Assembly (NCBI GenBank): GCA_963814675.1
Contig: CAWFDT010000015.1
Location: 321,950 to 385,949, forward strand
Source: an uncultured Pseudomonadota bacterium
GTDB taxonomy: Bacteria; Pseudomonadota; Gammaproteobacteria; Steroidobacterales; Steroidobacteraceae
DNA: 64,000 bases
Direction of reading: 5' to 3'
Part shown: positions 1 to 20,167 of the stretch, in pieces
How the letters are laid out: the number at the start of each line of letters is the position of its first letter
How positions within the stretch are numbered: the first letter of the stretch is position 1
Translations under genes and position numbers: made by a program
The notes under the pieces: model-generated
Databases searched by the model: none
What the model was told of the DNA's origin: nothing
What the model saw: only the letters and a program-made list of their open reading frames with translations

Positions 1-478
1 GCTGCTGTTCGCAGCCCGTCACGAAGTCATCGTCACGACCCCGTACTACGTCCCCAACGAGTCACTGCACAGTGCGCTGTGCACGACTGCCTACCGCGGG
101 GTCGAAACGACGATCGTCCTCCCGGCCCGCAACGACTCGTGGATCGTCGGGGCAGCCAGTCGCAGCTACTATGCGGACCTGCTCGGGGCCGGGGTCAGGA
201 TCCATGAGTACCAGGGCGGCCTGCTGCACGCTAAATCGCTGACCTTGGATGGCGAGGTGACTTTGATCGGCTCAGCGAACATGGACCGGCGCAGCTTCGA
301 CCTCAATTACGAGAACAACATCCTGTTCTACGACCCTGCACTGACCGACACCGTACGCACGCGCCAGTACGATTACATTGCGCGCTCGCATCCGGTCACG
401 AAGCAGGCGGTGGCGGCGTGGCCGAGATCACGACGGCTCTGGAACAACCTCATCGCAACGCTTGGACCCCTGCTCTGA
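1..478 (+). CDS. cls: cardiolipin synthase (phospholipase D family), C-terminal part; 5' end outside the window
   Basis: Frame 2 is open from the window edge (LLFAARHEVIVTTPYYVPNE...). It contains a PLD HKD motif, HAKSLTLDGEVTLIGSANMDRRS. Stop at 476-478. Confidence 0.85.
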   Translation, partial: LLFAARHEVIVTTPYYVPNESLHSALCTTAYRGVETTIVLPARNDSWIVGAASRSYYADLLGAGVRIHEYQGGLLHAKSLTLDGEVTLIGSANMDRRSFDLNYENNILFYDPALTDTVRTRQYDYIARSHPVTKQAVAAWPRSRRLWNNLIATLGPLL

Positions 479-3101: not shown

Positions 3102-3500
3102 GATGGAACCCTTGTGAATGCGACGGCCAGACCGGAACACGCCTGTCTTAGGCGCTGCATAGGAGCAGAGTCGTTAGGCGCGTGCAACCACGCGCCACTG
3201 TGGCGTCTGCGGTCTGCGGCGGCGGGCAGGGTACTTGCCTGGATCTGCGTAGGCCCCCGAGCCAGTCGCAGTTAACGCGGGCCAGGAGCGGTCACACCCG
3301 GCGCGCCTCGGGCCGCCGTCAAGCTCAAAACGCAGGTAGAAGCCGCAGTGGCGAACGCCGCTGGATTTGTAATAAACGTAGCCCAGAGCTGATATTTGGC
3401 ATACGAGTTGAGATTGTTGATGATTGGCACAACCTTGGAACGCGCGTTCGTGGGCTCGTCACGAAACGCTGATCTCTATCCTGGCTAGGGAGTTTGCAGC

Positions 3501-4193
3501 ATGGGAACCATGATCCCATTTAAGCGTCCGGACGGCGGGGCCGTGCAGGGCTACTTGGCCGAACCACTACAGGCGGCGGGTGCTCCCGGAATTGTCGTCA
3601 TTCAGGAATGGTGGGGAGTCAACGGACAAATCCGCGGCGTCGCGGACCGATTGGCCAGCGCGGGTTACGTCGCCCTCGTGCCCGACCTTTTCCGCGGCAA
3701 GTCCACCGTGGAGGCGGAAGAGGCGCACCACCTCATGACGGCTCTGAACTTCGGCGATGCGGCCGCGCAGGACGTGCGCGGCGCAGTGCAATTCCTGAAA
3801 CCACGCTGCGGTAAGGTGGGCGTAACCGGCTTTTGCATGGGAGGCGCATTGACGCTTCTGGCCGCTTGCAACATTCCTGAGATCGACGCTGCCGTGGTCT
3901 GGTACGGCTGCCCGCCGCTGGAATACATTGACGCAACCAAGATCAAGGTGCCGCTGCAGGGACATTGGGCTACCCAGGACAAGTTCTTCCCCACCGCCAC
4001 CGTGGATTCGCTGGAGAAGAAGCTGCACGAAGCCGCGGTGACTTTTGACTTCCACTGCTACCTGGCCGCCCATGCGTTCGCCAACGAGACGGCCGTCGGC
4101 CCGGGACGTATCCCGGCCACCCAGTACGACCCCGTCTGGTCGCAGCACGCATGGGACCGCACCTTCCGGTTCTTTGGCCGCTGGCTCGGCTAA
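3501..4193 (+). CDS. dienelactone hydrolase family protein
   Basis: 230 aa with GIVVIQEWWGVN and the nucleophile elbow GVTGFCMGG. AGGGAG lies 8 nt upstream of the ATG. Confidence 0.85.
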   Translation: MGTMIPFKRPDGGAVQGYLAEPLQAAGAPGIVVIQEWWGVNGQIRGVADRLASAGYVALVPDLFRGKSTVEAEEAHHLMTALNFGDAAAQDVRGAVQFLKPRCGKVGVTGFCMGGALTLLAACNIPEIDAAVVWYGCPPLEYIDATKIKVPLQGHWATQDKFFPTATVDSLEKKLHEAAVTFDFHCYLAAHAFANETAVGPGRIPATQYDPVWSQHAWDRTFRFFGRWLG

Positions 4194-6613: not shown

Positions 6614-7329
6614 AGCTCGAGGACCTCAAGAAGCTGCATCAGAAGAGATACCGGGAGGAGTTCGGATATTTTTTGGTTGAAGGCGAACATCTCGTACTGG
6701 AGCTGCAAAAGGCGGCCCTTCGGAATCCTCAGTTACAGGGCTGTGAGCTGTATGTGACCCGTGGCCGGGAACAGTGGCGCAGTCAATTTGCAACTCACGT
6801 GATCAGCGAAGCCCAGATGGCGCGGATTGCAGACACCAAGACGCCGCAGGGAATAGTCGCGCTGGTGCCGCTGTTGCGGTCAGCGCCTCCAGACGCCGAC
6901 GAGCGCACAGTTTACCTGCACGAAATTCAGGACCCGGGAAATCTTGGGACGATTCTGCGCACGCTGGCGTGGTTCGGAAGACTCCGCTGCCTGCTCAGCC
7001 CGGGCAGCGTCGATCCGTACAACGCAAAAGTCGTGCGCGCCAGCATGGGTGCGATTTTTCATGTACCCATCGAACAGGATGTGGCATTGCTTTCCCTGCA
7101 CGAGCGTTTCGAACGCATCGCCTGTCTTGATATGAAGGGCGAGATGGTATCGTCCCCAGGGTTCAAGACGTTCAACTGCTACCTGTTCGGCAACGAAGCA
7201 CGCGGGCTGCCCCACGAGCAACTGGTTGCGCTCAGCGCAGAGTCCTTTACCCTCGCCGGTTGCGGCACCATCGAATCGCTGAATCTGGCATCGGCCGTCA
7301 ACATGTGTGTGTATGAACTGAACCGGTAA
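6610..7329 (+). CDS. TrmH/SpoU-family RNA 2'-O-methyltransferase
   Basis: 239 aa with SpoU motifs IQDPGNLGTILRTLAWFG, LFGNEARGL and IESLNLASAVNMCVYE. Its ATG overlaps the upstream stop (ATGA). Confidence 0.85.
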   Translation: MKLEDLKKLHQKRYREEFGYFLVEGEHLVLELQKAALRNPQLQGCELYVTRGREQWRSQFATHVISEAQMARIADTKTPQGIVALVPLLRSAPPDADERTVYLHEIQDPGNLGTILRTLAWFGRLRCLLSPGSVDPYNAKVVRASMGAIFHVPIEQDVALLSLHERFERIACLDMKGEMVSSPGFKTFNCYLFGNEARGLPHEQLVALSAESFTLAGCGTIESLNLASAVNMCVYELNR

Positions 7330-7798
7330 CGACTTAGCCGGCTGCTGAAAAAATGCGGGCAATGGATCACGGCTTTTTCGGCAATCCAGACCTACCTGAG
7401 TCGCGCGAGCGAATTGCGTCATCGCGAGCTTCTGCGAAAAGCGTCTCGGTACGACGCGAACGCACTGATTAACGCTCAACCAGAGCCAGTCTCAGCTGCC
7501 CGACCTCGTGTAGTCAGGCGAGCTTGCGCGATACGGCATCGGGTCGTGGCAAACGTGAGGTTCGTCTATGGGCCCTTCATAAGACCCAAAGAGTCCATAG
7601 GCGCCTGATAGCAGGCCGCATCGGTAATACGCAGCCGCAACGCTGAGGCCAACAGCGCCGCGACCCCATGTCCCTTTCAGGAGAATCGCTTCTCTTGCGA
7701 TAGACACGAGTGTGCGCGACTATAGTCGAGCACTATATGCCCGCCTGCCGCTCAAGTGACGCAGCGCGCGCATACCAGCAAGAGGGAGTTGACCCGGG

Positions 7799-8440
7799 AT
7801 GACGCGCAAGAGCACGACGCTGGGAGGCCTGATCCGGGCCTTGCGAGGCCAGAAGAACTGGACCCTCCGGCAGATGAGCGAGAAGGTGGGCATTCCACTG
7901 TCGACGCTCGCGAAGGTCGAGCAGGACAAACTCTCGCTGAGCTACGACAAGCTGCAGCAATTCACCTCGCGGCTGGGACTGACGATGGCCGAGTTCCTGG
8001 CGCAGGCCGATCCGCCAGCGGCGGATGCACCGCGGGTCGTGACCGCTCGCCGCAGCCTCACGCGGGATAACAACTCGATCCAAATCTCGACGCCCAACTA
8101 CGACTACGAGTACCTGTGCGCAGACCTGCGCGAGAAGCGCATGGTCCCCATCCTTACGCGCATCAGGGCGCACGACATCGCGGAGTTTGGTGAGCCGGTG
8201 CGCCACCAGGGCGAGGAATTTGTGTTCGTGCTCGAGGGGACTGTCGAGGTGCACCTGCAGTTCTACACCTCGGTCGTGCTGAAGGCAGGCCAGGGTATCT
8301 ACCTCGACAGCACCATGGGACACGCTTACGTCGCCAAGGACTGCGAGAGCGCCTTGGTGTTGGGCGTGTGTTCGGGCGAGGACCGAAACCTTGCCGGCGA
8401 ATTGATCAGCCTCGCCGAGAAGGCGGAGAAAGTCGCCTAG
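7799..8440 (+). CDS. XRE-family HTH transcriptional regulator with C-terminal cupin domain
   Basis: 213 aa. N-terminal HTH LIRALRGQKNWTLRQMSEKVGIPLSTLAKVEQDK and a C-terminal cupin-like GEEFVFVLEGTVEVH. AGAGGGAG precedes the ATG. Confidence 0.85.
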   Translation: MTRKSTTLGGLIRALRGQKNWTLRQMSEKVGIPLSTLAKVEQDKLSLSYDKLQQFTSRLGLTMAEFLAQADPPAADAPRVVTARRSLTRDNNSIQISTPNYDYEYLCADLREKRMVPILTRIRAHDIAEFGEPVRHQGEEFVFVLEGTVEVHLQFYTSVVLKAGQGIYLDSTMGHAYVAKDCESALVLGVCSGEDRNLAGELISLAEKAEKVA

Positions 8441-8571
8441 GCAGCAGCGGCCCGCTGTTGCCGGGCTGATCCCTCGCTCGCCGCGCGGGCTCGCCCCGCG
8501 CGGACACCCCGGCGCCCTACTGTGCCCTACCCCTGGTCAGAAAACCGGCGATGAGCCGGATCAGAAACAAA

Positions 8572-8625
8572 TTGACACAAAATTCTCTGTACAGGATCAT
8601 TGTCTTGTATTAGACAAATTGTGTC
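8572..8625 (+). promoter_or_regulatory. candidate promoter plus operator upstream of the TonB-dependent receptor gene
   Basis: AT-rich patch in a GC-rich genome. TTGACA at 8572-8577, a 17-nt spacer, then GATCAT. Nested inverted repeats GACACAAAATT / AAATTGTGTC and TTGTCT / AGACAA. Confidence 0.35.
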
Positions 8626-8698
8626 TCATAACCCTGGCGCCCCGTAGATCGAGGCGCCGGGTGTCCGGCGTAGAAACAGTGGTTTGGGGGCAAAATCC

Positions 8699-11113
8699 AT
8701 GAATTTGACGGTCAGAGCGACAGTGTCTGCAGTGCCGGGGATTGCCGGAATCGGATGGCGAGGTATTTCAGTCCTGGGTCTGATGGCGTTTGGCGTGGCG
8801 CTCACGGCGGGTTCCGGCGCGTGGGCACAGCAGGCCATCGACAGCGGGACCAGTGCGGTCGTGCTGCAGGAGGTCGTCGTCACCGCACAGAAGCGGGAAG
8901 AGAAACTGCACGATGTACCGATGGGGGTGACCGCAATCACCTCGGATGAGCTGCAGAAGCAGCAGCTCGTCAGCCTCGAGGACCTGCAATCCAAAGTGCC
9001 GGGCTTATCGCTGACGGCGGTTCAACCCGGCGAGACACGGCTTACCCTTCGCGGCCAGAACGTGGGCGGCATCGGCTCGACGGTGACCACCTACATCGAC
9101 GATACGCCCTTCGGCTCGAGCAACGCGCTCGCCAACGGCTTCTTTTTCACCGGTGATTTCGACACCTGGGACCTGCAGCGTGTGGAGGTGCTGCGCGGGC
9201 CCCAGGGAACGTTGTACGGCGCCGGCAGTGAGGGCGGTCTTCTTAAATATGTGACTAATCCGCCCGACCCGACGAAGTTTGCCGCGGCTGTCCAGGGTGG
9301 CGGCGAGGATGTCGCGCACGGTGAGGCTGCCGGGTCGGGCAAGGGCATGATCAACCTGCCGATCGGTGATCGCGCCGCATTTCGCCTCAGCGGCTACTAC
9401 GAGGGGTTACCCGGTTACGTCAATGATCCGTCGCTCGGCGAGAAGGACATCAATCGCGGCTATCGCGATGGCGTGCGTGCAGCTTTACTGGTCAACTTTA
9501 CCGACGACCTTTCAATACGACTGAACGCCTTCGGGCAGGACCTGCACACCGACGGGACGCCCAACACCGATGTGGTCGGAGCAGGAAATCTCCAGTTCAC
9601 GCCGCCCGCCAATCAGCTCGAGCCGCAGAACGGCAACTTCAACCAGCAACGCTTCATCAACGAGCCGGACACCTTCAAGTACCGTATCTACAGTGGCAAG
9701 CTCAACTGGAACAGCGGCTGGGGAACCTTCACCTCGATTACGAGCTACGGGACCACAGAGCAGAACGGGATTTCTGACGTAACTTCGACCGCGGTCGCGC
9801 CGGGGACCGGGCCAACGGGTACGTACGGCGATGTCGCTACGAGCCTTCTCGGACTCGTGGCCCCGCCGCCTCCCGGCGCGACCGCCGTCGCTGGGCTCGC
9901 CGAGCCCGCGTCGACCGAGATCAAGAAGTGGACCCAGGAGTTTCGTCTTGCCTCCTCGGCCGCGCAGACTCTCGAGTGGCAGCTCGGTGCGTTCTACACG
10001 CACGAGTCCTCGACGCTCGACGAGACGCTACCGCTCTTCTACATCCCGACGCAGGCGTACGCCCCTCTTCCGGATGCCCTGGGCGGTCCGTCGCTCGAGA
10101 ACTCTTCCCTCGACGCCCTGTATCGCGAGTGGGCCGGCTTTGCCGAAGTGACCTATCACTTCAGCCCGCAATTTGATCTCGGCCTCGGCGGCCGCTGGTC
10201 CGAGAACAAGCAGTCCGCCAGCCAGGTGACCAGCGGTGCGCTGCTCACGCTCAACCAGCAGCCTTCCCCGCAGGTGACTTCCGGCGACTCGACCGGCACC
10301 GACTGGACCTACTCGATTGCGCCACGCTGGCACGTGAGCAGCGACACCATGGTGTACGGGCGGATCGCGACCGGCTATCGGCCGGGCGGCCCGAACGACC
10401 TGCCTCCGAGCGCGCCAGCAAGCATCCAGCGACAGTACCAGCCTGACAAGACGACGAACTACGAGGTCGGCGTACGCACGGACCTGCTCGACAAGCGTCT
10501 GTCCGTCGATGTCGCCGCGTTCCTCGTCGACTGGACGAAGATTCAGCTGTTCGAAGAGGTCCAGCTGCCGGGACAACCTCCATTCGGCATCAACGCCAAC
10601 GGCGGCACCGCGCGCAGCAAGGGTGTCGAATGGACGTTCGGTTACACGCCGGTGACTGGCCTGACTTTCACGCTTGTGGGTGCGTACGTCGACGCCTACC
10701 TGACTTCGCCGGCGCCCGAAACCGGCGGCAACGAGGGCGATCCTTTGCCGTACGTGCCGAAATGGAGCACGTCGCTGGACGGGGCCTACACGTGGCATGC
10801 GTTTGGCGACTACAGCGCGTTCGCCGGGGCAACTTGGAGTTACATCGGTTCGCGCTTCAACGATTTCTCCGCCATTCCCGGTGCCACGGGCGCGCTCGAG
10901 CCGGAACCGCGCCCGGACCTGTCGAGCTACAACACGGTCAACCTGCGCGCCGGGCTGGAGAACGGTCGCTGGACGTTCGAGCTATACGGCAAGAACGTCG
11001 GCGACACCCGCGGCATAGCCTACTACACCAACTCGGGTAGCCCGAACTACGGAGGCACGGTTGGCTACGTTCAGCCGCGCACGGTCGGCGCGTTGGTGAC
11101 TGCCCGATTCTGA
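8699..11113 (+). CDS. TonB-dependent receptor
   Basis: ATG at 8699 follows GGGGG at 8-nt spacing. Signal peptide ends AWAQQ. Plug motifs VVVTAQKREEKLHDVPMGVTAI and RGQNVGG are present, and the sequence ends in the typical aromatic residue (TARF). Confidence 0.9.
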   Translation: MNLTVRATVSAVPGIAGIGWRGISVLGLMAFGVALTAGSGAWAQQAIDSGTSAVVLQEVVVTAQKREEKLHDVPMGVTAITSDELQKQQLVSLEDLQSKVPGLSLTAVQPGETRLTLRGQNVGGIGSTVTTYIDDTPFGSSNALANGFFFTGDFDTWDLQRVEVLRGPQGTLYGAGSEGGLLKYVTNPPDPTKFAAAVQGGGEDVAHGEAAGSGKGMINLPIGDRAAFRLSGYYEGLPGYVNDPSLGEKDINRGYRDGVRAALLVNFTDDLSIRLNAFGQDLHTDGTPNTDVVGAGNLQFTPPANQLEPQNGNFNQQRFINEPDTFKYRIYSGKLNWNSGWGTFTSITSYGTTEQNGISDVTSTAVAPGTGPTGTYGDVATSLLGLVAPPPPGATAVAGLAEPASTEIKKWTQEFRLASSAAQTLEWQLGAFYTHESSTLDETLPLFYIPTQAYAPLPDALGGPSLENSSLDALYREWAGFAEVTYHFSPQFDLGLGGRWSENKQSASQVTSGALLTLNQQPSPQVTSGDSTGTDWTYSIAPRWHVSSDTMVYGRIATGYRPGGPNDLPPSAPASIQRQYQPDKTTNYEVGVRTDLLDKRLSVDVAAFLVDWTKIQLFEEVQLPGQPPFGINANGGTARSKGVEWTFGYTPVTGLTFTLVGAYVDAYLTSPAPETGGNEGDPLPYVPKWSTSLDGAYTWHAFGDYSAFAGATWSYIGSRFNDFSAIPGATGALEPEPRPDLSSYNTVNLRAGLENGRWTFELYGKNVGDTRGIAYYTNSGSPNYGGTVGYVQPRTVGALVTARF

Positions 11114-11262
11114 CGGCATGAGAGGCGGCCGCGGTCAGGAAGGGGCTTATGAGTTCGAGGCGACTGGCTTGCCTCTCGCAACACGTCGTGGCTGGGGTTC
11201 TTCCACCCCGCCGACGGCTACTTCGAGCAGCACCTTAAGAGGCGTGCCATGGTGAAGCCGCA

Positions 11263-12315
11263 ATGAATGCAGCCCATGACGGTGGCGGTTCCGCGCAGTC
11301 GAACGTCCTGGAACTGCCATATCCGTATCTGCTGTTCCTCGGTGACACGACCGAGCCGGCGTACGCCAAGACCGCCTTCGGGCTGCGCGACTGGGCTCCG
11401 GAGCGCTGTCTCGCCGAATGGGGCTGCGATACCGCCACCGTCTCCACCGGTCTGCCGCGTCTTTCCCCGAAAGAGGCGCGCGTTCGCGGTGCGCGCGGGC
11501 TGGTGATCGGTGTCGCGAACACGGGCGGGATCATCGGCGAGAGCTGGGTGCCGCTGCTGGTCGAGGCACTGGAGGCAGGACTCGATATCGTCAGCGGCCT
11601 GCACGTGAAGCTCGGCTCCGTGCCGGCCCTGAAGGCCGCCGCGCACCGTTGCGGTCGGCGGTTGATCGACATACGCACGCCGCCGCCGAACATCCCCTGT
11701 GCAAGCGGATCCAAGCGTCCCGGGAAGCGCCTGCTGACCGTCGGCACCGACTGCGCGCTCGGCAAGAAATACAGCGCGCTGGCGATCGCTCGGGCTTTCA
11801 AGGCACGCGGCCACGCTGTCGACTTTCGCGCGACCGGACAGACCGGGATCCTCATCTCCGGCGGTGGCATGCCGATGGATGCGGTGGTCGCAGACTTTGA
11901 GGCCGGAGCCGCGGAATTGCTCAGCCCCGCTGCCGACCCTGCGCACTGGGACGTCATCGAAGGGCAGGGGTCCTTGTTCCACCCGGCCTATGCGGCGGTT
12001 TCCTTAGGTCTGCTGCACGGCAGCCAGCCGGATGTGATCGTGGTATGTCACCAGCCGGGACGCGAATGCGTGCTCGGCCATCCGGACTTCGCGCTGCCGA
12101 GCATCAGCGAGACGATAGACCTGAACCTGCGGCTCGGGAGGCTCACCAATCCTGCGATTCGCTGTGGCGGCGTCAGCCTCAATACCTCGCACCTGGATTT
12201 GGGCGCCGCGCGCGCGCTGATGGCGCAGCAGAGTGCCCAGCTCGGACTGCCGGTGGCGGATCCGATGCGTCCGGGAGCGGAATTCGAACGACTCATCGAC
12301 TGGTGCCTGGGCTGA
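11263..12315 (+). CDS. DUF1611-family protein (DgcN-like D-glutamate N-acetyltransferase family)
   Basis: 350 aa. PYPYLLFLGDTTEPAYAKTAFGLRDW, LTVGTDCALGKKYSA and EGQGSLFHPAY are as I recall for DUF1611. Confidence 0.75.
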   Translation: MNAAHDGGGSAQSNVLELPYPYLLFLGDTTEPAYAKTAFGLRDWAPERCLAEWGCDTATVSTGLPRLSPKEARVRGARGLVIGVANTGGIIGESWVPLLVEALEAGLDIVSGLHVKLGSVPALKAAAHRCGRRLIDIRTPPPNIPCASGSKRPGKRLLTVGTDCALGKKYSALAIARAFKARGHAVDFRATGQTGILISGGGMPMDAVVADFEAGAAELLSPAADPAHWDVIEGQGSLFHPAYAAVSLGLLHGSQPDVIVVCHQPGRECVLGHPDFALPSISETIDLNLRLGRLTNPAIRCGGVSLNTSHLDLGAARALMAQQSAQLGLPVADPMRPGAEFERLIDWCLG

Positions 12316-12339
12316 CCCGGGCGAGTGGGAATTAAGAAC

Positions 12340-14302
12340 ATGAGCATACAAAGACTGATCGCTTCCACCCTGATCGCCGGCGTTCTCGCGCTGGCGGGCA
12401 CGCTCGTCCTGGCGCAGGAGAGTCCGCCGGCACCGGTGGTTGCCGCAGCTACCGCCGCCCCGCTGACCGGCGCGGATGTAAACGCGTGGCTCGATGGCTA
12501 CATGCCGTACGCGCTCAAGAGCGGCGACATCGCCGGCGCCGTCGTGGTCGTCGTCAAGGACGGGCAGGTGCTGACCGAGCGTGGCTACGGTTACTCGGAC
12601 GTGGAGAAGCGCACGCCGGTGGATCCGGCCCTCACACTCTTCCGGCCCGGGTCGGTGTCGAAGCTGCTTCACCTGGACCGCGGTCATGCAACTGGTGGAG
12701 CAAGGCAAGATCAATCTCGACGCCGATATCAACCAGTACCTGGACTTCAAGATTCCCGAACGTGATGGCAAGCCCATCACCATGCGCAACCTGATGCAGC
12801 ACACGGCCGGATTCGAGGAACAGGCCAAGGGCATCATCTCCGAGGATCCGAAGGCTCCCGGATTCGACACGTTGCTGAAGGCTTGGGTACCGATGCGCGT
12901 GTTCGCACCCGGGACGACGCCCGCGTATTCGAACTACGGCGCCTCACTGGCCGGCTACATCGTCCAGCGCCTGTCTGGGGAGTCCTTCGACGGCTACATC
13001 GAGAAGCACATATTCGCCCCGCTCGACATGAAGCACTCCAGCTTCCGGCAGCCGCTGCCGGCCGAGCTCGTGCCGCTGATGTCCAAGGGCTATCCGGCCG
13101 CGTCCGAGGAGCCACGGCCGTTTGAGATCATAGGTCCCGCGCCGGCCGGCTCACTCGCCTCCAGCGGTGAGGACATGGCGCATTTCATGATCGCGCACCT
13201 GCAGGGCGGCGAATACCACGGCAACCGCATACTCACGGCCGAGACTGCCGAGACGATGCACAACAGTCCCCTGACGATGCTGCCGCCGCTGAACCGGATG
13301 GAACTCGGCTTCTTCGAGACCAACATCAACGGGCGCGAGGTGATCGGTCACCTGGGCGATACCGACTATTTCCACACCTCGCTGCATCTGTTCCTGAAGG
13401 AGAACGTGGGCTTCTACGTCTCGTTCAACAGTCTCGGGAAAGACGGTGCCGCCGGCGAACTGCGCGGCGCGCTATTCCAGGATTTCGCCGACCGTTACTT
13501 CCCCGCCACCCCGCCAAAGGCAGGCGTCGATGCGAAGACGGCCGCAGCGCACGCTGCGCTCATGCGTGGCGCCTGGGCGGTGTCGCGCGGCTCCCAGTCG
13601 AACTTTCTGGCCGGCGTCGGCTTCATCAGCCAGACCAAGGTCGGGGTCGGCAAGAAGGGCGAACTCGTGTTGCCGTTCCCGGGCCTCAACGGCAAGCCGC
13701 GCCACTGGATCGAGATTGCACCCTTCGTGTGGGCTGACGAGGACGGCCACGACCGGGCTGCCGCGCAGGTCATCGATGGTAAGCCGGTGCGCTTCAGCTT
13801 CGACCTGCTCTCGCCGTTCATGGTGTTCGAGCGCGTCCCCTGGTACGCCGCGAGCACCTGGCTGGTGCCGCTGTTCGGAATCGGGGTGGCGGCGTTGCTG
13901 CTGACCGCGCTGGTGTGGCCGGTGGCGGTGCTGGTGCGACGGCGCTACCGGGCACCGCTGACGCTGGCGCCTGCCTCACTGCGGGCCTACCGCTGGAGCC
14001 GAATCGCCGCGGTTGCGGTGCTGGCCGAGCTTGCTCTCTGGCTGCTGATCCTTACCCTCATAATCAAGGACACGAACAGCCTGAACGGACGGCTGGATCC
14101 GCTGTTGTGGTTCGCGCAGCTCTTCGGTGCTCTCGCCTTCTGGGGCGGCCTCGCGCTGATGCTGTGGAACCTGAAGGCGGTGTGGGGCGGCCAGCGTCGC
14201 TGGCCCGCGAAAGTCTGGAGTGTTGTGCTCGTGATCTCAGCCGGTGCGGTACTGTGGGTGGCGCTGGTATGCAAGCTGCTCAGCTTCGGAACCCACTATT
14301 GA
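12340..14302 (+). pseudogene. S12-family serine hydrolase (beta-lactamase / D-aminopeptidase fold) with C-terminal 4-TM anchor, interrupted by one +1 frameshift
   Basis: Frame 1 reads ...FRPGSVSKL up to 12666. Frame 2 continues FTWTAVMQLVEQGK from 12668, so one extra C sits at 12667 inside the SxxK motif. A YSN motif and four hydrophobic helices follow. Confidence 0.75.
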
Positions 14303-15312
14303 TGGCTGCCCTCAAGCTCACCGTCGAGAAGGTGAACCTGGCGTTCTCCGCGCCCTTTCGCATCTCCGGGTTCGTGTTCGACAGTCAGGACGCCGTCGTG
14401 GTGAGCGTGGACGACGGCACGCATCGGGGTCGCGGCGAGGCCGCCGGTGTCTACTACCTCAATGACAATGCGGCGCACATCGTTACCACGCTCGAGTCCA
14501 GGCGCGCGGCGATCGAGGCCGGCATCGACCGCGAGAAGCTGCAGTCGCTGCTCCCGGCGGGTGGCGCGCGCAACGCGCTTGACTGCGCACTGTGGGAGCT
14601 GGATTCCCGGCGCACCGGCAAGGCGGTGTGGGAACTTGCAGGACTGGACCCACCCAAGCCGCTGCTCACCACCTTCACGCTCGGCGCCGAGAGCCCGGCC
14701 CACATGGCCGAGGGTGCGCGGCGCTACGCGAGCGCCCGGGCCCTGAAACTCAAGCTCACCGGGGAAGCGGCGCTGGACCTGGAGCGCGTGAGAGCGGTCC
14801 GGGCCGCGCGACCGGACGCGTGGATCGGCGTCGATGCTAACCAGGGCTACACCATCGAGGGGCTGAAGCCCCTGATCGCCGGGCTCGTGGAGGCGCGGGT
14901 CATGCAGCTCGAGCAGCCCCTCAAGCGTGGCGCTGAGGCGCAACTGCAGGGCTTTGCGTCGCCGATCCCACTGATCGCGGATGAGAGCGCGCTCACCCTC
15001 GCCGATGTACCTTCACTGGTGGGCCGCTTCAGCATGGTGAACATCAAGCTCGATAAGTGCGGCGGCCTCACCGAGGGCCTTGCCATGGCGCGCGAGGCCC
15101 GTCGTCTGGGATTGGGCGTGATGGTCGGCAACATGGTGGGCACCAGTCTTGCCATGGCACCCTCGTTCGTCCTCGGGCAGCTGTGCGATGTCGTCGACCT
15201 GGATGGGCCCACCTTCCTCAAGCACGACCCCGCGCCGACCATCACCTATTCCGACGGCATGATCTGGTGCGACGAACAGGTGTGGGGGAGGCGGAGCAGG
15301 CAGCCCGCGTGA
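14302..15312 (+). CDS. enolase-superfamily dipeptide epimerase / N-acetyl-D-Glu racemase-like (DgcA-like)
   Basis: Internal ATG at 14302 (MAALKLTVEKVNLAFSAPFRISG) overlaps the upstream TGA. KLKL, DANQGY, LEQP and DES metal/catalytic motifs are present. Confidence 0.8.
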   Translation: MAALKLTVEKVNLAFSAPFRISGFVFDSQDAVVVSVDDGTHRGRGEAAGVYYLNDNAAHIVTTLESRRAAIEAGIDREKLQSLLPAGGARNALDCALWELDSRRTGKAVWELAGLDPPKPLLTTFTLGAESPAHMAEGARRYASARALKLKLTGEAALDLERVRAVRAARPDAWIGVDANQGYTIEGLKPLIAGLVEARVMQLEQPLKRGAEAQLQGFASPIPLIADESALTLADVPSLVGRFSMVNIKLDKCGGLTEGLAMAREARRLGLGVMVGNMVGTSLAMAPSFVLGQLCDVVDLDGPTFLKHDPAPTITYSDGMIWCDEQVWGRRSRQPA

Positions 15313-15366
15313 GTCCGCGCCGCGCCGTCCTCACGCCCGCGCACCGCATCTTCTGAGCGTGCGGCG

Positions 15367-16467
15367 ATGTCATCCCGGTTCCAGCGCTTCCTGCTACCCG
15401 CCTTTGCCTTCAAGGCGGTCGTGATCGGGGGTGGCTATGCCACCGGACGCGAGCTGGCCGAATTCTTCCTGCCCAGCGGGCCCTGGGGCGGTGTCGCCGC
15501 GATGTTGCTCGCGACCCTCATCTGGAGCGGCGTGTGTATTGCCACTTTTCGCTTCGCCCGCGCCGCCGGTGCGCGTGACTACCAGACCTTTGTGCGCGCG
15601 CTGCTCGGCCCGGGATGGATAGCCTTCGAGGCCGCCTACGTGCTGTTCGTGATCCTGATCCTGGCGGTATTCGGCGCGGCCGCGGGCGCCATTGCCGCAA
15701 GCCTGGGATTGCCCGCGATGGTCGGCACGCTGGCCCTAATGACGTCGATTGCCCTCGTGGTCGCCTACGGGAACGCGTCCGTCGAGCGCCTGTTCACGTA
15801 CGTCTCGTTCCTGCTGTACGGGGTCTACGCGCTGTTCTTGCTGCTCGCACTCACCCACTTCGGCGGACTGATCGTTGCGGGATTCTCCCGGCACGTACCC
15901 ATGGAGGGCTGGGTGACCGGTGGGGTGACCTATGCCAGCTACAACATCATCGGGGCGGTGGTGATCCTGCCGGTATTGCGTCACCTCACCAGTGACCGTG
16001 ATGCGGTCGTCGCAGGTCTCATCGCAGGTCCTCTGGCGATGCTGCCGGCGTTGCTGTTCTTCTGCTGCATGATGGCCTACTACCCCCAGATCGGCGCGGT
16101 CACGCTGCCGTCTGACTTCCTGCTGCAGCGCCTCGATCTGCCGCTGTTCCGCCTGCTGTTCCAGCTGATGATCTTCGCCGCGCTCTTGGAAAGTGGCACG
16201 GGCTCCGTGCATGCCATCAACGAGCGCATCGGCAACGCGTGGCGTCGTCGCCAGGGGCACTCGCTCGGGCACCGCGCACGTCTTGCGATCGCGCTCGTGA
16301 TCCTCACCGGGTGCATGTTCCTGGCGGCACGCTTTGGCCTGGTGGCGCTGATCGCCAATGGCTACCGGCTGCTCGCGGCGATATTCCTGCTCGTCTACGT
16401 ACTACCCGTTCTCACGATCGGCATCTTCAAACTGCGGCGCGGCCCCGCGCGCCAGGAAACGACATGA
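15367..16467 (+). CDS. YkvI-like polytopic membrane protein (putative amino-acid/peptide permease)
   Basis: 366 aa and about 11 hydrophobic segments. The N-terminal GGGYATGRELAEFF resembles the YkvI signature GAGFASGQEI..FF. Confidence 0.6.
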   Translation: MSSRFQRFLLPAFAFKAVVIGGGYATGRELAEFFLPSGPWGGVAAMLLATLIWSGVCIATFRFARAAGARDYQTFVRALLGPGWIAFEAAYVLFVILILAVFGAAAGAIAASLGLPAMVGTLALMTSIALVVAYGNASVERLFTYVSFLLYGVYALFLLLALTHFGGLIVAGFSRHVPMEGWVTGGVTYASYNIIGAVVILPVLRHLTSDRDAVVAGLIAGPLAMLPALLFFCCMMAYYPQIGAVTLPSDFLLQRLDLPLFRLLFQLMIFAALLESGTGSVHAINERIGNAWRRRQGHSLGHRARLAIALVILTGCMFLAARFGLVALIANGYRLLAAIFLLVYVLPVLTIGIFKLRRGPARQETT

Positions 16468-18038
16468 AGAAAATCATTCTCGCGGCGGTGTTTGCCGTCG
16501 GCTGTCCGGTGGTGTTCGGCGCCCCGCCCAAGGACTTCGCGCAGCGCGTGGAACGCGCCCGCACGGCCGTCGGGGTCCCCGGCATGGCGGTCACCATCGT
16601 CGAGGGCGATACGGTGACCTTCGCCAGGGGATTCGGCGTGAAGGCCATCGGCAGGAGCGAGGCGGTGGATACCGATACGATCTTCCCGACCGGCTCGACC
16701 GGCAAGGCGGTCACCGTGGCGGCCCTTGGCATCCTCGTGGACCAGGGCCGGATCGGCTGGGACGACAAGGTGATCGACCGACTGCCCGGGTTCCAGATGT
16801 ACGACCCCTGGGTCACGCGCGAGATCACGATCCGAGACCTCCTGGTCCACAGAAGCGGGCTCGGCCTGGGTGCCGGGGACCTGCTGTTCGTGCCGCGCAC
16901 CAATCTCAGCCGCGCGGAGTCGGTGCGCCGGCTGCGCTATATCAAACCTGCGACCAGTTTCCGCAGCGGCTTCGCCTACGACAACGTGCTCTACATGGTG
17001 GCGGGCCAGCTCATCGAGTCGGTGACCGGGGAGACCTGGGAGCACTTCACGGCGGAGCACGTCCTCAAGCCTGCCGGCATGCTGCACTCGACCAGCGACT
17101 CGGAGTCACGGTTCGCGGCGGTCAACCGCGCGCAGCCGCACGCGCGTATGGACGGCGGCTTCCGCGGGACCGGCACTCAGGAACTGTTGGATGAGCGCGA
17201 CGAACTCGGCCGCACCGCAGCCCCAGCCGGTGGACTTGCAGTCAGTGCCAACGACATGGGGCGGTGGCTCTCCATCCAGCTGCACGCCGGAGAGTTGCCA
17301 GGGCACGCCGGGCGCCTGTTCTCCGAAAAGGCGCACGAGCAGATGTGGACTCCGGTCGTACCGCAGCCGATCAGCCCGCTCCCCGAGGCCCTGAAAGCTA
17401 CGCAGCCGAGCTTCAACACTTATGCACTCGGCTGGGACGTCATGGACTACCGCGGCACGAAGGTCGTTTGGCACGGCGGTGCGGTGTTCGGTTTCCTGAC
17501 CGCGGTGGTGCTCATCCCGGACCGCCACGTCGGCTTTTCCATCCAGATCAACAGCGAGGACGGTGAGATCATCCGTGGGCTCATGTACGAGCTGCTGGAT
17601 CACTACCTCGCTCTGCCGCACACCGATTGGGTCGCCCGCTACCAGGCCGAGAAAAAGCGCCGGGTCGCTGAGGCGCTCGCGACCCTCAAGGCACAGACCG
17701 CCAAACCTGCCGCCGTTGGCCCCTCGCTCCCTCTCGAGCGCTACACCGGCAGCTTCGCCGATGCCTGGTACGGCAACATCGAAGTCACCCAGGCGGACGG
17801 CAAGCTCAGGATCGACTTCAAGTCGACGCCGCGCATGGCCGGCACCCTCGAGCACTGGCAGTACGACACCTTCGTCACGCACCTCGATGACAAGAGCATC
17901 GAGCCGGCCTACGTGACGTTCGGCCTGGGGCCCGATGGCGGCGTCGAGCGCGTGACTCTTAAGCCGGTCTCACCGCTGGCGGATTTCTCCTACGACTACC
18001 AGGACCTGATGTTCGTGCCCGTAACCAAGGCGCCATGA
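16464..18038 (+). CDS. S12-family serine hydrolase (beta-lactamase-related, D-aminopeptidase/DD-carboxypeptidase-like), secreted
   Basis: ATG at 16464 overlaps the upstream stop (ATGA). Signal peptide MKKIILAAVFAVGCPVVFG. SxxK motif FPTGSTGKAVT and YDN motif are present. Confidence 0.85.
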   Translation: MKKIILAAVFAVGCPVVFGAPPKDFAQRVERARTAVGVPGMAVTIVEGDTVTFARGFGVKAIGRSEAVDTDTIFPTGSTGKAVTVAALGILVDQGRIGWDDKVIDRLPGFQMYDPWVTREITIRDLLVHRSGLGLGAGDLLFVPRTNLSRAESVRRLRYIKPATSFRSGFAYDNVLYMVAGQLIESVTGETWEHFTAEHVLKPAGMLHSTSDSESRFAAVNRAQPHARMDGGFRGTGTQELLDERDELGRTAAPAGGLAVSANDMGRWLSIQLHAGELPGHAGRLFSEKAHEQMWTPVVPQPISPLPEALKATQPSFNTYALGWDVMDYRGTKVVWHGGAVFGFLTAVVLIPDRHVGFSIQINSEDGEIIRGLMYELLDHYLALPHTDWVARYQAEKKRRVAEALATLKAQTAKPAAVGPSLPLERYTGSFADAWYGNIEVTQADGKLRIDFKSTPRMAGTLEHWQYDTFVTHLDDKSIEPAYVTFGLGPDGGVERVTLKPVSPLADFSYDYQDLMFVPVTKAP

Positions 18039-18112
18039 ACCGGCGCCTGCGGCGGATGGCTGCAGGCGTACCCTTCTTAGCGCAATCACCGACTACTGTT
18101 TTGGGGAATCGC

Positions 18113-19429
18113 ATGCTAAAGAGACTCACCTGGATTTTTGTGGCGTTGCTGGCGGCGCCGCTGGTGTGCGTGGCTGCCCCGGCCGGGCAGGACTACGCAG
18201 CGCGCGTGGCGCAGATCCTCAAGAAGACCCCGCTAATCGACGGCCACAATGACCTGCCATGGGAGATCCGCGAGCGCTTCCACAGCAAGGTCTCGACGAT
18301 CAACCTCAGCGCTGACACCTCCGTATTGCCGGTCCCGGCAGGCGGCATTGCCCTGATGACCGACATCACCCGCCTGCGCCGCGGTGGCGTGGGCGGCCAG
18401 TTCTGGTCGGTGTTTGTACCGGTGCAGATGCAGGGGGCCGCGGCCGTCCAGGCAACGCTTGAGCAGATCGACATCGTGCGCCAGATGGCGGAGCGGTATC
18501 CGCAGGACTTCGAGCTCGCGTATACCGCCGCCGACGTACGCCGCATCCATAAGTCCGGGCGGATCGCCTCCCTGATCGGCATTGAGGGCGGGCACCAGAT
18601 CAACGATTCCTTGGCGGTGCTTCGTGAGATGTACGCAGCGGGCGCGCGCTACATGACCCTCACGCACTCCTCCAACACCGACTGGGCGGACTCGGCGACC
18701 GACGCCCCCAAACACCACGGCCTTACGGCCTTCGGCCGCGAGATCGTGCACGAGATGAACCGCCTGGGCATGTTGGTGGACATCAGCCACGTGTCGGCCG
18801 AGACCATGCACGCGGTGCTCGATACCGCGGAAGCCCCGGTGATATTCTCCCATTCCTCCGCGCGGGCAATCGTCGATCACCCGCGCGACGTACCGGACGA
18901 TGTGCTGCGCCTGCTTGAGCGAAACGGCGGCGTCGTGATGGTCAACTTCTATCCCGGCTACGTCTCCGCCGCCCGCAACCGCTGGGATGCGGACTACGCC
19001 GCCGAGCAGGCACGCTATGACAGCCCGCCGTTTGCGGGCCTCTACATCGGCCAGCCCGATCGTGCCAAGGCCGCCCTCGAGGAATGGGTGAAGGCGCACC
19101 CGGCACCGAAGGTCACCCTCGCCGAAGTTGCCGACCACATTGAGCATGTGCGCCGCGTCGCTGGCATCGACCACGTGGGACTGGGTTCGGACTTCGACGG
19201 CATCCCCGTGACCCCGGTGGGGCTGGAAGGGGTTGATAGGTACCCGGACCTTCTGGCGGAACTCATGCGTCGCGGCTGGACGGACGATGAAGTCGCCAAG
19301 CTCGCCGGCGAGAACATCCTGCGCGTCCTTGCCAGCGCGGAGAGTGTCGGTGCGCGCCTGCGCGCGAACCGCAAGGCCTCGGAGGCCACCATCGAGGAAC
19401 TGGATGGGCTGTCGAGGGCGAAGAACTGA
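18113..19429 (+). CDS. membrane (renal-type) dipeptidase, peptidase family M19
   Basis: IDGHNDLPWEIRERF, IGIEGGHQI and DISHVS motifs. ATG at 18113 gives the signal peptide MLKRLTWIFVALLAAPLVCVAA. The ORF-track start at 18035 overlaps the upstream stop and cannot be excluded. Confidence 0.88.
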   Translation: MLKRLTWIFVALLAAPLVCVAAPAGQDYAARVAQILKKTPLIDGHNDLPWEIRERFHSKVSTINLSADTSVLPVPAGGIALMTDITRLRRGGVGGQFWSVFVPVQMQGAAAVQATLEQIDIVRQMAERYPQDFELAYTAADVRRIHKSGRIASLIGIEGGHQINDSLAVLREMYAAGARYMTLTHSSNTDWADSATDAPKHHGLTAFGREIVHEMNRLGMLVDISHVSAETMHAVLDTAEAPVIFSHSSARAIVDHPRDVPDDVLRLLERNGGVVMVNFYPGYVSAARNRWDADYAAEQARYDSPPFAGLYIGQPDRAKAALEEWVKAHPAPKVTLAEVADHIEHVRRVAGIDHVGLGSDFDGIPVTPVGLEGVDRYPDLLAELMRRGWTDDEVAKLAGENILRVLASAESVGARLRANRKASEATIEELDGLSRAKN

Positions 19430-19705: not shown

Positions 19706-20167
19706 ATGCGAAGAATTCTCGCAATCATTCTTTTCGCCGCGACCTTCTTCGGGGGAATTGCGATGGCCAAGGATCCGGTCGTCGGCACCTGGACATTGGA
19801 TGTCGCGAAGTCAAAGTTCAGTCCGGGACCTGCACTTAAGAGCGCGACGCGCACGTACACGGAGTCAGCGGATGGACTCGCGCTTGAAGGCAAGACGGTC
19901 GCAGCTGACGGCAAGGAAGCATCAATGCACGTAGCCTACAAGGCCGACGGTAAGAGTTACCCTGTTACCGGCAACCCGGACGCAAATAGCGTGACGCCAA
20001 AGTCTGTCGATGCCAGGACATGGGACTTTACCCTCACGAAGGATGGGAAGGTCGTTGGCACGGTACATCGGGTGGTCTCGGCGGATGGCAAGACGCTGAC
20101 CGTGCACAACAAGGGTACGCACAACGGGCTGCCATATGACGACACTCTTGTTTTCACGCGCCAGTAA
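19706..20167 (+). CDS. small secreted protein of unknown function (lipocalin-like beta-rich)
   Basis: 153 aa. GAGGAGA lies 6 nt upstream of the ATG. Signal peptide MRRILAIILFAATFFGGIAMA. Alternating beta-strand-like sequence. Confidence 0.6.
   Translation: MRRILAIILFAATFFGGIAMAKDPVVGTWTLDVAKSKFSPGPALKSATRTYTESADGLALEGKTVAADGKEASMHVAYKADGKSYPVTGNPDANSVTPKSVDARTWDFTLTKDGKVVGTVHRVVSADGKTLTVHNKGTHNGLPYDDTLVFTRQ

Follow-up and report, generated by a model that had tools for sequence, protein, structure and literature searches.

Peptides that carry D-Glu from the bacterial cell wall are handled by murein-peptide recycling sets such as MpaA–YcjG–PepD of Escherichia coli and ykfABCD of Bacillus subtilis. 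TonB-dependent receptors belong to nutrient-uptake loci of several kinds, among them the CUT loci of Xanthomonas, the polysaccharide utilisation loci (PULs) of Bacteroidetes and the RagAB peptide importer. To our knowledge, no dedicated route of D-Glu catabolism other than DgcN/DgcA (2023) has been described, and that route was studied as a free-amino-acid pathway in marine bacteria. The corresponding genes, dgcN-dgcA, are a D-glutamate catabolic pair that was reportedly described by Yu et al. (2023, ISME J 17:537), as cited in PMC12363236. Pab87, an S12 enzyme of the CubicO type from Pyrococcus, is D-stereospecific and degrades D-amino-acid peptides, and it adjoins a D-aminoacylase and a peptide transporter (PMC2651629). 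Periplasmic, PvdM-like, non-hydrolytic M19 homologues have been described beside TonB-dependent receptors in Sphingomonas, Sphingobium, Novosphingobium, Caulobacter and Steroidobacter (PMC9305348), and the authors speculated on periplasmic handling of D-amino-acid peptides. Here we describe an eight-gene locus at positions 7799–19429 of a 64,000-nucleotide (nt) stretch of Steroidobacteraceae DNA (the window, in which all positions are counted). With a probability that we put at roughly 55%, it encodes a system for the TonB-dependent uptake and periplasmic breakdown of D-amino-acid peptides, which feeds a DgcN/DgcA-like step in the cytoplasm.

In the proposed pathway, the TonB-dependent receptor (g2) would import a D-amino-acid-containing oligopeptide across the outer membrane. 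In the periplasm, two S12 peptidases of the DD-peptidase/D-aminopeptidase type would cut it: g4, tethered to the inner membrane by four helices, and g7, a soluble protein with a DUF3471 domain. In this genome, a zinc-dependent M19 dipeptidase of the Sco3058 type (g8) may complete the cleavage. The freed D-amino acid, which is probably D-Glu or an acidic compound close to it, would then cross the inner membrane through a YkvI-type permease (g6). In the cytoplasm, the DUF1611 protein (g3) and its enolase-superfamily partner (g5) would, by analogy with DgcN and DgcA, convert D-Glu into N-acetyl-D-Glu and then into N-acetyl-L-Glu. A regulator with helix-turn-helix (HTH) and cupin domains (g1) would control expression, probably from the promoter at 8572–8600. 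We infer every substrate and the direction of flow; gene content, motifs, predicted locations and conservation are observed. The substrate is most plausibly D-Glu-bearing fragments of the bacterial cell wall or similar material; narrowing it to peptidoglycan stem peptides, or assigning a fate to D-Ala, would be pure conjecture. Together, a periplasmic L-Xaa-D-Xaa dipeptidase and a D-Glu-specific cytoplasmic step would offer a coherent alternative to what E. coli does with YcjG and PepD. The first-pass annotation of this DNA had proposed a succession of uptake, periplasmic trimming and entry of D-Glu and D-Ala into metabolism, and the predicted locations of the proteins (signal peptides, fold) are consistent with it.

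The listing of open reading frames (ORFs) and their translations contain all eight of the plus-strand genes claimed earlier, in the order g1 to g8 (Table 1), and Pfam and NCBIfam searches agree with every family then named, including DUF1611, MR_MLE, Beta-lactamase and Peptidase_M19. Upstream, a SpoU methylase gene ends at 7329, and downstream lie convergent CoA-binding and PLP-enzyme genes from 20418. Since these are unrelated housekeeping genes, the boundaries of the locus appear to be right. The genes are separated by 149 nt (g2/g3), 24 nt (g3/g4) and 54 nt (g5/g6), or overlap at TGATG (14300–14304, the g4 stop and the g5 start) and ATGA (16464–16467, the g6 stop and the g7 start). These junctions stand as first described, with gaps given as 25–150 nt, apart from two points: the g1/g2 gap of 243–258 nt lies outside that range, and the third reported overlap (ATGA, 18035–18038) is in the sequence and is probably not the real g7/g8 junction. 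The S12 hydrolase with a membrane anchor was assigned correctly as to family and anchor, and its gene is not an intact ORF.

Table 1. Features of the locus, in window coordinates. The last column gives the number of related loci, among the 52 with full 10-kb flanks, in which a homologue was found.
Feature	Position	Strand	Description and matches	Loci (of 52)
g1	7799..8440	+	XRE-type HTH + cupin regulator, 213 residues; Pfam HTH_3 6.4e-09, Cupin_2 6.7e-09	48
Candidate promoter	8572-8600	+	Promoter-like TTGACA-17-GATCAT, inside the g1/g2 gap, 5' of the receptor gene	
Candidate operator	8600-8617	+	Perfect palindrome TTGTCT-N6-AGACAA, directly 3' of the promoter-like -10	
g2	8699..11113	+	TonB-dependent outer-membrane receptor, 804 residues from ATG 8699; Pfam Plug 7.1e-19, TonB_dep_Rec_b-barrel 5.5e-35	37
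g3	11263..12315	+	DUF1611 protein, DgcN-like, predicted cytoplasmic, 350 residues; Pfam DUF1611_N 3.6e-21, DUF1611 9.5e-69	
g4	12340..14302	+	S12 serine hydrolase comprising a signal peptide, a periplasmic domain and four transmembrane helices at the C-terminus, 653 residues when repaired; Pfam Beta-lactamase 4.9e-62 on the repaired protein	46
g5	14302..15312	+	Enolase-superfamily racemase/epimerase, DgcA-like, predicted cytoplasmic, 336 residues; Pfam MR_MLE_N + MR_MLE_C	48
g6	15367..16467	+	Inner-membrane permease, YkvI type (COG3949), APC/LeuT fold, 366 residues; homologues named 'uncharacterized membrane protein YkvI' by JGI	42
g7	16464..18038	+	Secreted S12 serine hydrolase + C-terminal DUF3471, 524 residues; Pfam Beta-lactamase 1.1e-54, DUF3471 1.2e-26	38
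g8	18113..19429	+	Secreted M19 dipeptidase, 438 residues from ATG 18113; Pfam Peptidase_M19 2.3e-117	

A scan with a DUF1611 alignment, one genome per species, yielded 80 related loci at 65–91% identity, whose neighbourhoods were searched by tblastn with the window proteins. The regulator, the receptor, the anchored S12 protein, the enolase, the permease and the S12+DUF3471 protein are all present in 23 of the 52 loci with full flanks. Soil bacteria of the Gammaproteobacteria, Alphaproteobacteria and Verrucomicrobia share the cluster. Its hosts include Steroidobacteraceae, Rudaea, Rhodanobacter, Pseudoxanthomonas, Woeseiaceae, many Sphingomonadales, Caulobacteraceae, Acetobacteraceae and three Verrucomicrobiota (Chthoniobacterales). 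Two arrangements can be distinguished, a window-like one in which g3-g4-g5-g6-g7 follow each other (11 loci) and one with g2-g3-g6-g7 (16 loci, mostly with g1(-)-g4-g5 in addition, upstream). Common to both is that g4 adjoins g5 and that g6 adjoins g7. The first-pass annotation had listed a gene order absent from every relative among the findings that would refute its proposal; this is not the case, since the gene set does recur in related loci, with the order shared by the closest ones. The nearest of these (L001, g3 ~89% identical) has the window order, an intact g4 of 653 residues and a third S12 gene before the M19 gene. In three loci with a g3 identity of 79% (L002–L004), the M19 gene is upstream, the regulator is divergent, and an S9 peptidase gene lies between the receptor and DUF1611 genes; on the long contig L002 there is also an Amidohydro_3 gene at the end, whereas the sequences of L003 and L004 break off inside the gene that follows g4. 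A JGI contig (g3 78% identical) carries an M28 peptidase gene and no M19 gene. The flanking genes differ among L001, L002–L004 and the JGI contig.

The same membership thus recurs with shuffled order and different flanks in three classes or phyla, which is strong evidence, on comparative grounds, that the genes form a conserved functional module. Around this set, the hydrolases vary. An Amidohydro_3 protein (565–584 residues) is matched in 28 of the 80 loci (at least 50% of the query covered), with at least 40% identity in 15–17, and the two copies examined (L002 and L055) carry signal peptides; S9 genes appear occasionally, and M28 and third S12 genes are also seen. Such a change of periplasmic hydrolases is the pattern expected of a degradative locus. 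If the genes were instead neighbours by chance or by inheritance only, the long gap after g1, which suggests at least two transcripts, would be easily accommodated. The recurrence of one gene set in three classes or phyla with varied order and flanks, and its complete absence around the sister DgcN clade (see below), make this view scarcely credible: the synteny data effectively refute it.

Some loci depart from the common pattern. In three Sphingobium and Sphingomonas loci (L050, L054 and L056), DUF1611 occurs twice and the enolase two or three times within 20 kb, which suggests duplicated, possibly substrate-diverged modules side by side. In five loci of the same DUF1611 clade (L025, L053, L074, L078 and L082), only the enolase partner, or nothing recognisable, is nearby; the pair also exists without the receptor and the peptidases. 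The G+C content of the locus core in the window (10001–18000) is 0.654–0.666, compared with 0.56–0.64 in most of the window. This, together with a DUF1611 identity of 65–72% in Verrucomicrobiota, is compatible with horizontal spread of the module.

The two putative cytoplasmic enzymes are best understood next to the canonical pair. The g3 protein has the two-domain architecture of DgcN (DUF1611_N + DUF1611), and its top match among solved structures is PDB 7XRJ (E 6.5e-96, 48% identity), which we take to be the characterised DgcN. The enolase catalytic set, with KxK (K149xK151), the three metal ligands (D178, E204 and D227) and the second catalytic lysine (K249), was located by motif search in g5 alone. 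Neither protein has a hydrophobic segment or a signal peptide, so both should be cytoplasmic. In the window, the two genes stand one gene apart, with the anchored S12 gene between them. The best NCBIfam matches are DgcN for g3 (NF041892, 441.9 bits, cut-off 480) and DgcA for g5 (NF042940, 358.6 bits, cut-off 400); on the model for YcjG, the L-Ala-D/L-Glu epimerase (NF011708), g5 reaches 235 bits, with a cut-off of 343. The earlier designation as a DgcN/DgcA-type pair is borne out by these best matches, and naming the proteins DgcN and DgcA outright is an extrapolation, both scores being below the equivalog cut-offs. Among the ten nearest full-length representatives of DUF1611 clusters at 50% identity, the one from the window's clade scores highest on the DgcN model (455 vs 341–420 for the others). 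From the below-cut-off scores and this top score it follows that the receptor-linked pair is, as judged by sequence models, a sister subfamily, nearest to canonical DgcN/DgcA and outside the curated equivalog boundary.

The genomic context of this subfamily is entirely different from that of the canonical clade. A metagenome scan with the 7XRJ sequence gave 80 marine loci (L085–L164) that are 76–88% identical to 7XRJ. An enolase gene is near the DUF1611 gene in 68 of them; of the 39 loci that span 9 kb or more, 37 have it immediately downstream. The receptor, either S12 protein, the permease, the regulator, M19, Amidohydro_3 and S9 are matched in none of the 80 marine loci (E 1e-4, no coverage filter). 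One canonical marine pair (L085) passes both cut-offs, with 552 bits for DgcN and 505 for DgcA. In that locus, the one marine locus examined for it, a D-amino-acid transaminase gene follows the pair (9951–10919; NCBIfam 375.8 bits, cut-off 320).

In a different route, the permease would import a dipeptide such as L-Ala-D-Glu, g5 would be an L-Ala-D/L-Glu epimerase (YcjG/YkfB-like) that yields the all-L dipeptide for ordinary peptidases, and the DUF1611 protein would have another job that involves no N-acetylation. 'L-Ala-D/L-Glu epimerase' is the label that JGI gives to exact-cluster relatives of g5, which is 40% identical to E. coli YcjG, has the structure of that enzyme (1JPD) as its second-best PDB match (3.2e-59) and is no closer in identity to canonical DgcA (38–49%). 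Moreover, its D299xD301 motif is invariant in 71 relatives; in the dipeptide epimerases YkfB and YcjG, the DxD motif binds the N-terminal ammonium group of the peptide. However, g5 scores higher on the DgcA model than on the YcjG model, and canonical DgcA itself reaches 316 bits on the latter, so cross-matching is normal in this family. In 48 of the 52 loci, a g5 homologue is no more than 10 kb away from the DUF1611 gene, a linkage also seen in the canonical pair. The APC-fold g6 resembles carriers of amino acids, not known peptide carriers, and a periplasmic L-Xaa-D-Xaa dipeptidase would remove the need for epimerisation. We consider the epimerase route quite unlikely and retain the conversion of D-Glu through its N-acetyl derivatives as the preferred cytoplasmic step.

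Both S12 proteins carry the SxxK/YxN/HxG set of R61 DD-peptidase, D-aminopeptidase and alkaline D-peptidase (MEROPS family S12). In g7, whose reading frame is intact and begins with a signal peptide, these motifs are S78TGK, Y172DN and H337GG, kept in at least 54 of 58 relatives; in g4, they are S105VSK, Y196SN and H337LG, invariant in 41 homologues. JGI labels the relatives of both as 'CubicO group peptidase'. The nearest solved S12 relatives of the two proteins, all of them distant, are Flp, Pab87, alkaline D-peptidase, R61, ClbP and IS11; D-stereospecific enzymes among them are alkaline D-peptidase, Pab87, R61 and ClbP. Of these relatives, sequence searches of the PDB return IS11, ClbP, alkaline D-peptidase (4Y7P) and Pab87 (2QMI) for g7, and Flp, Pab87 and alkaline D-peptidase as the best structural relatives of g4. 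These distant relationships make g4 and g7 candidate D-stereospecific peptidases.

The Pfam family of both proteins is named Beta-lactamase, and both match many class C models weakly. Taken with the degradation of imipenem by the mammalian M19 dipeptidase, this could point to beta-lactam resistance or catabolism, in which the S12 pair would be class-C-like beta-lactamases and the M19 enzyme would hydrolyse carbapenems like renal dipeptidase. The two proteins, however, score 81 and 43 bits on the class C beta-lactamase model (cut-off 415) and 25–81 bits over all class C models (cut-offs 415–900), and their third motif is HxG, not the KTG of class C enzymes. The constant partners of the S12 genes (DUF1611, enolase, permease, receptor and regulator) have no role in resistance, and about half of the related loci can do without the M19 gene. 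This reading is very improbable; model scores, the HxG motif and the partner genes effectively exclude it.

The g4 gene of the window is not read in one frame. A +1 frameshift, an extra T at 12668/12669, lies two codons past the catalytic SVSK. The first frame, which starts at ATG 12340 and stops at 12765, encodes the signal peptide and SVSK (12340–12669), and the second (ORF 12581–14302) the remaining 540-odd residues. In a nucleotide alignment, the window reads AAGCTGCTTCACC where more than 20 related loci read AAGCTGC-TCACC, exactly one base fewer, and removal of the extra T gives a protein of 653 residues. The 120 listed homologues of g4 are 621–692 residues long and unbroken, except for the truncated P0295 (538 residues) and P0302 (578 residues); the closest is 97% identical over a length of 653 residues, and in loci with called genes the homologue is a single intact ORF (652–674 residues). 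A full-length product of the window's g4 is absent from the protein collection, which has g3, g5 and g7. The nearest genome, the metagenome-assembled L009, also shows broken genes in this locus, for which reason an assembly indel is as likely as a true pseudogene: either the anchored S12 step has been lost in this genome, or the sequence has a one-base assembly error. The AlphaFold2 model of an intact g4 homologue is poor overall (pLDDT 56), with four confident C-terminal helices.

For g6, there is no sequence match in Pfam, NCBIfam or the PDB. Its AlphaFold2 model (pLDDT 82, pTM 0.81) is matched by Foldseek to AdiC, MhsT, BasC, ApcT, LAX3 and Nramp in the PDB with a probability of 1.00 and TM values of 0.5–0.7, and the predicted structure identifies g6 as a putative secondary transporter of the APC superfamily (LeuT fold).

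The start of g8 is most likely ATG 18113 and not the upstream in-frame ATG 18035, which would yield 464 residues. Relatives start their M19 gene at the equivalent methionine, which opens the signal peptide MLKRLTWIFVALLAAPLVCVAA and is preceded by a Shine-Dalgarno-like GGGGA. In all probability, then, g7 and g8 do not overlap and are 74 nt apart. The top PDB match of g8 is 3ID7 (Sco3058; 1.9e-121), an enzyme that reportedly prefers L-Xaa-D-Xaa dipeptides, according to Cummings et al. (2010). All five zinc ligands (HxD, the bridging Glu, His and His) are kept in g8, within DGHND, GIEGG, LTHSSN and DISH, which makes it a true dipeptidase type and not a PvdM-like protein. Three M19 subtypes are present in the related loci. 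The window type and a lipoprotein subtype keep the five ligands, and a third, with a Tat signal, is without four of the five. The latter (represented by L055 6590–7756) is found in 26 of the 80 related loci, with at least 40% identity to the L055 copy, and is absent from the window; in loci of the sphingomonad type its gene immediately precedes that of the receptor. This subtype corresponds to the PvdM-like, non-hydrolytic family of PMC9305348.

The regulator g1 is only distantly related to the PuuR-like NCBIfam model (53 bits, cut-off 211). Its homologues in the related loci are mostly divergent from the operon, and it is likely to be the sensor and regulator of the locus. The promoter-like element upstream of g2 is the sole one found and, together with the palindrome at its 3' end (8572–8617), forms a candidate promoter and operator. 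Copies of the palindrome could be operators; one with two mismatches is present at 7690–7707, upstream of g1. The palindrome statistics are weak, with three matches reached by 6 of 100 shuffled sequences. No exact copy was found in 84 related loci, and when 57 regions upstream of receptor genes were scanned by crude arm counting, no dominant operator motif emerged. A scan for intrinsic terminators returned 9, with 7.8 expected.

The ORF of the receptor gene g2 opens at TTG 8684, and the protein has a signal peptide. It reaches no NCBIfam equivalog: the SusC/RagA model gives 50.5 bits (cut-off 368), and the best match, a siderophore-receptor subfamily, gives 125 bits, below its cut-off of 223.5. 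No SusD-family Pfam match was found among the eight genes. The first-pass annotation had called the locus PUL-like, a term that does not hold in the strict sense as there is no SusD partner. The window locus has a mosaic appearance: its regulator and g3–g8 are nearest to those of L001 and L005 (82–94%), and g2 is only 45–47% identical to the receptors of these two loci and 80–81% identical to those of L002, L018 and L023, whose regulators are only 38–42% identical to g1. Within the module, the receptor seems to be exchangeable.

The same machinery could act on a different substrate, namely secondary metabolites that contain D-amino acids (lipopeptide antibiotics, peptide siderophores, cyanopeptides) or aged, racemised soil peptides. 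The design of g4, a periplasmic S12 domain followed by C-terminal helices, is shared by ClbP, an enzyme that cleaves an N-acyl-D-Asn motif and is among the PDB matches of g7; the siderophore-receptor match of g2, although below its cut-off, and the lack of a gene for a gamma-D-Glu-specific peptidase fit the same picture. In many related loci, a ligand-less PvdM-like M19 gene stands beside the receptor gene, and such proteins have been tied to the periplasmic handling of peptide metabolites and D-amino-acid peptides (PMC9305348). On the other hand, the locus and its surroundings contain no iron-related gene, no sigma/anti-sigma pair of the extracytoplasmic function (ECF) type and no biosynthetic gene, the regulator is of the XRE/cupin type, and the best structural relatives of g4 do not include ClbP. 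A wide spread in soil heterotrophs is better suited to an abundant substrate. We regard these substrates as possible but unlikely, and D-Glu-bearing cell-wall material as the preferred one.

Several findings weigh against the D-amino-acid-peptide pathway as a whole. The scores of g3 and g5 fall short of the DgcN and DgcA cut-offs, as do those of the Sphingopyxis pair (449.5 and 358.6 bits); g5 is about equally far from canonical DgcA and from YcjG, and it retains the DxD motif known from dipeptide epimerases. The similarity of the S12 proteins to characterised D-peptidases is low (E 1e-14 to 1e-27), and sequence at this distance does not establish stereospecificity. The g4 gene is frameshifted in the window. 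An M19 gene of any kind is present in 27 of the 52 full loci and one with complete ligands in only 20, which makes this enzyme accessory and not core. The locus encodes neither an enzyme for the gamma-D-Glu-diamino-acid bond nor an N-acetyl-L-Glu deacetylase. The observations of the first-pass annotation are partly confirmed and its interpretation partly supported.

A few other features of the window deserve mention. A few kb 5' of the locus, beyond the genes for an FAD protein and the SpoU methylase, are those for an M1-family aminopeptidase (896 residues, 450–3140, minus strand) and a dienelactone hydrolase (3501–4193, plus strand), neither of which is kept beside the module in relatives. 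Directly 3' of g8, there is a small plus-strand ORF (19706–20167, 153 residues) whose product begins like a signal peptide and is not matched by Pfam. The ORF has no homologue in any of the 84 related loci and was left out of the locus. Nothing in the rest of the 64-kb window is connected with the locus; it contains no TonB/ExbBD, N-acetyl-Glu deacetylase or tRNA gene.

The D-amino acids of peptidoglycan make up a large, slowly turned-over share of organic nitrogen in soil and the sea. If the proposed pathway is correct, it would tie outer-membrane uptake of D-peptides to the recycling of D-Glu, provide the first functional context for YkvI-type permeases (COG3949) and for two 'CubicO group' S12 subfamilies, and supply a gene marker for the scavenging of cell-wall peptides in soil metagenomes. 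A bolder version, which we put forward only tentatively, is that a horizontally mobile 'D-peptide utilisation locus' enables soil Proteobacteria and Verrucomicrobia to mineralise the D-Glu-peptide part of bacterial necromass along a widespread and as yet undescribed route. Its parts would be the TonB-dependent receptor, anchored and soluble S12 peptidases with D-stereospecificity, a YkvI-type permease for D-amino acids, the DgcN/DgcA-like pair and an HTH/cupin sensor. In this version, the DUF1611/enolase pair is a distinct subfamily that has co-evolved with the uptake machinery. The hypothesis is directly testable, as cultured strains carry the module, among them Sphingopyxis terrae NBRC 15098, Rudaea cellulosilytica DSM 22992, Povalibacter uvarum DSM 26723, Steroidobacter gossypii, Sphingobium limneticum DSM 25076 and Sphingomonas sediminicola DSM 18106.

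Compared with the known systems, the locus shares individual parts with each. Like dgcN-dgcA, it has a linked DUF1611/enolase pair with best NCBIfam matches to these proteins and with the enolase catalytic residues kept. Unlike in the canonical loci, the pair is not adjacent, and the receptor, S12, YkvI, HTH/cupin and M19 genes, which those loci do not have nearby, are all present. With the murein-peptide recycling sets it has in common a YcjG-related enzyme, peptidases and a transporter directed at D-Glu peptides of the cell wall. In contrast to these sets, the locus has neither an amidase of the MpaA/YkfC type for gamma-D-Glu-diamino acids nor an LD-carboxypeptidase; in place of an ABC oligopeptide system, uptake would rely on a TonB-dependent receptor and a carrier with an APC fold, and a DUF1611 partner is present. 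The likeness to Pab87 lies in an S12 domain with the SxxK/YxN/HxG motifs and an extra C-terminal domain, and the D-aminoacylase neighbour of Pab87 has a parallel in the Amidohydro_3 gene often seen in the related loci. The similarity, however, is low (E 6e-14 to 6e-26) and confined to the catalytic domain, and the window proteins are secreted or membrane-anchored, whereas Pab87 forms a cytoplasmic cage.

The clusters with PvdM-like proteins (PMC9305348) are found in overlapping taxa and also have an M19-family gene beside a receptor gene. They differ in that g8 keeps all five zinc ligands and in that they centre on Tat-exported FAD oxidoreductases, with no mention, in the section on them, of DUF1611, enolase, S12 or YkvI partners. 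The speculation on D-amino-acid peptides made there is the closest published idea to the one proposed here. In full-text literature searches, neither DgcN/DgcA nor DUF1611 was found to have been described as part of a peptidase locus with a TonB-dependent receptor, in line with the first-pass remark that no such description was known to its author. Similar to the TonB-dependent nutrient loci, the locus combines a receptor, periplasmic hydrolases, an inner-membrane carrier, cytoplasmic enzymes and a regulator of its own. Unlike theirs, its predicted substrate is a peptide and not a glycan, its receptor is not of the SusC/RagA type and is without a SusD-like partner, and its hydrolases are of types tied to D-amino-acid peptides. 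The parts are thus all of known kinds. What looks new is that they are combined in a conserved way, that this combination is restricted to a distinct subfamily of the DUF1611/enolase pair, and that it gives YkvI permeases and two S12 subfamilies a functional context.

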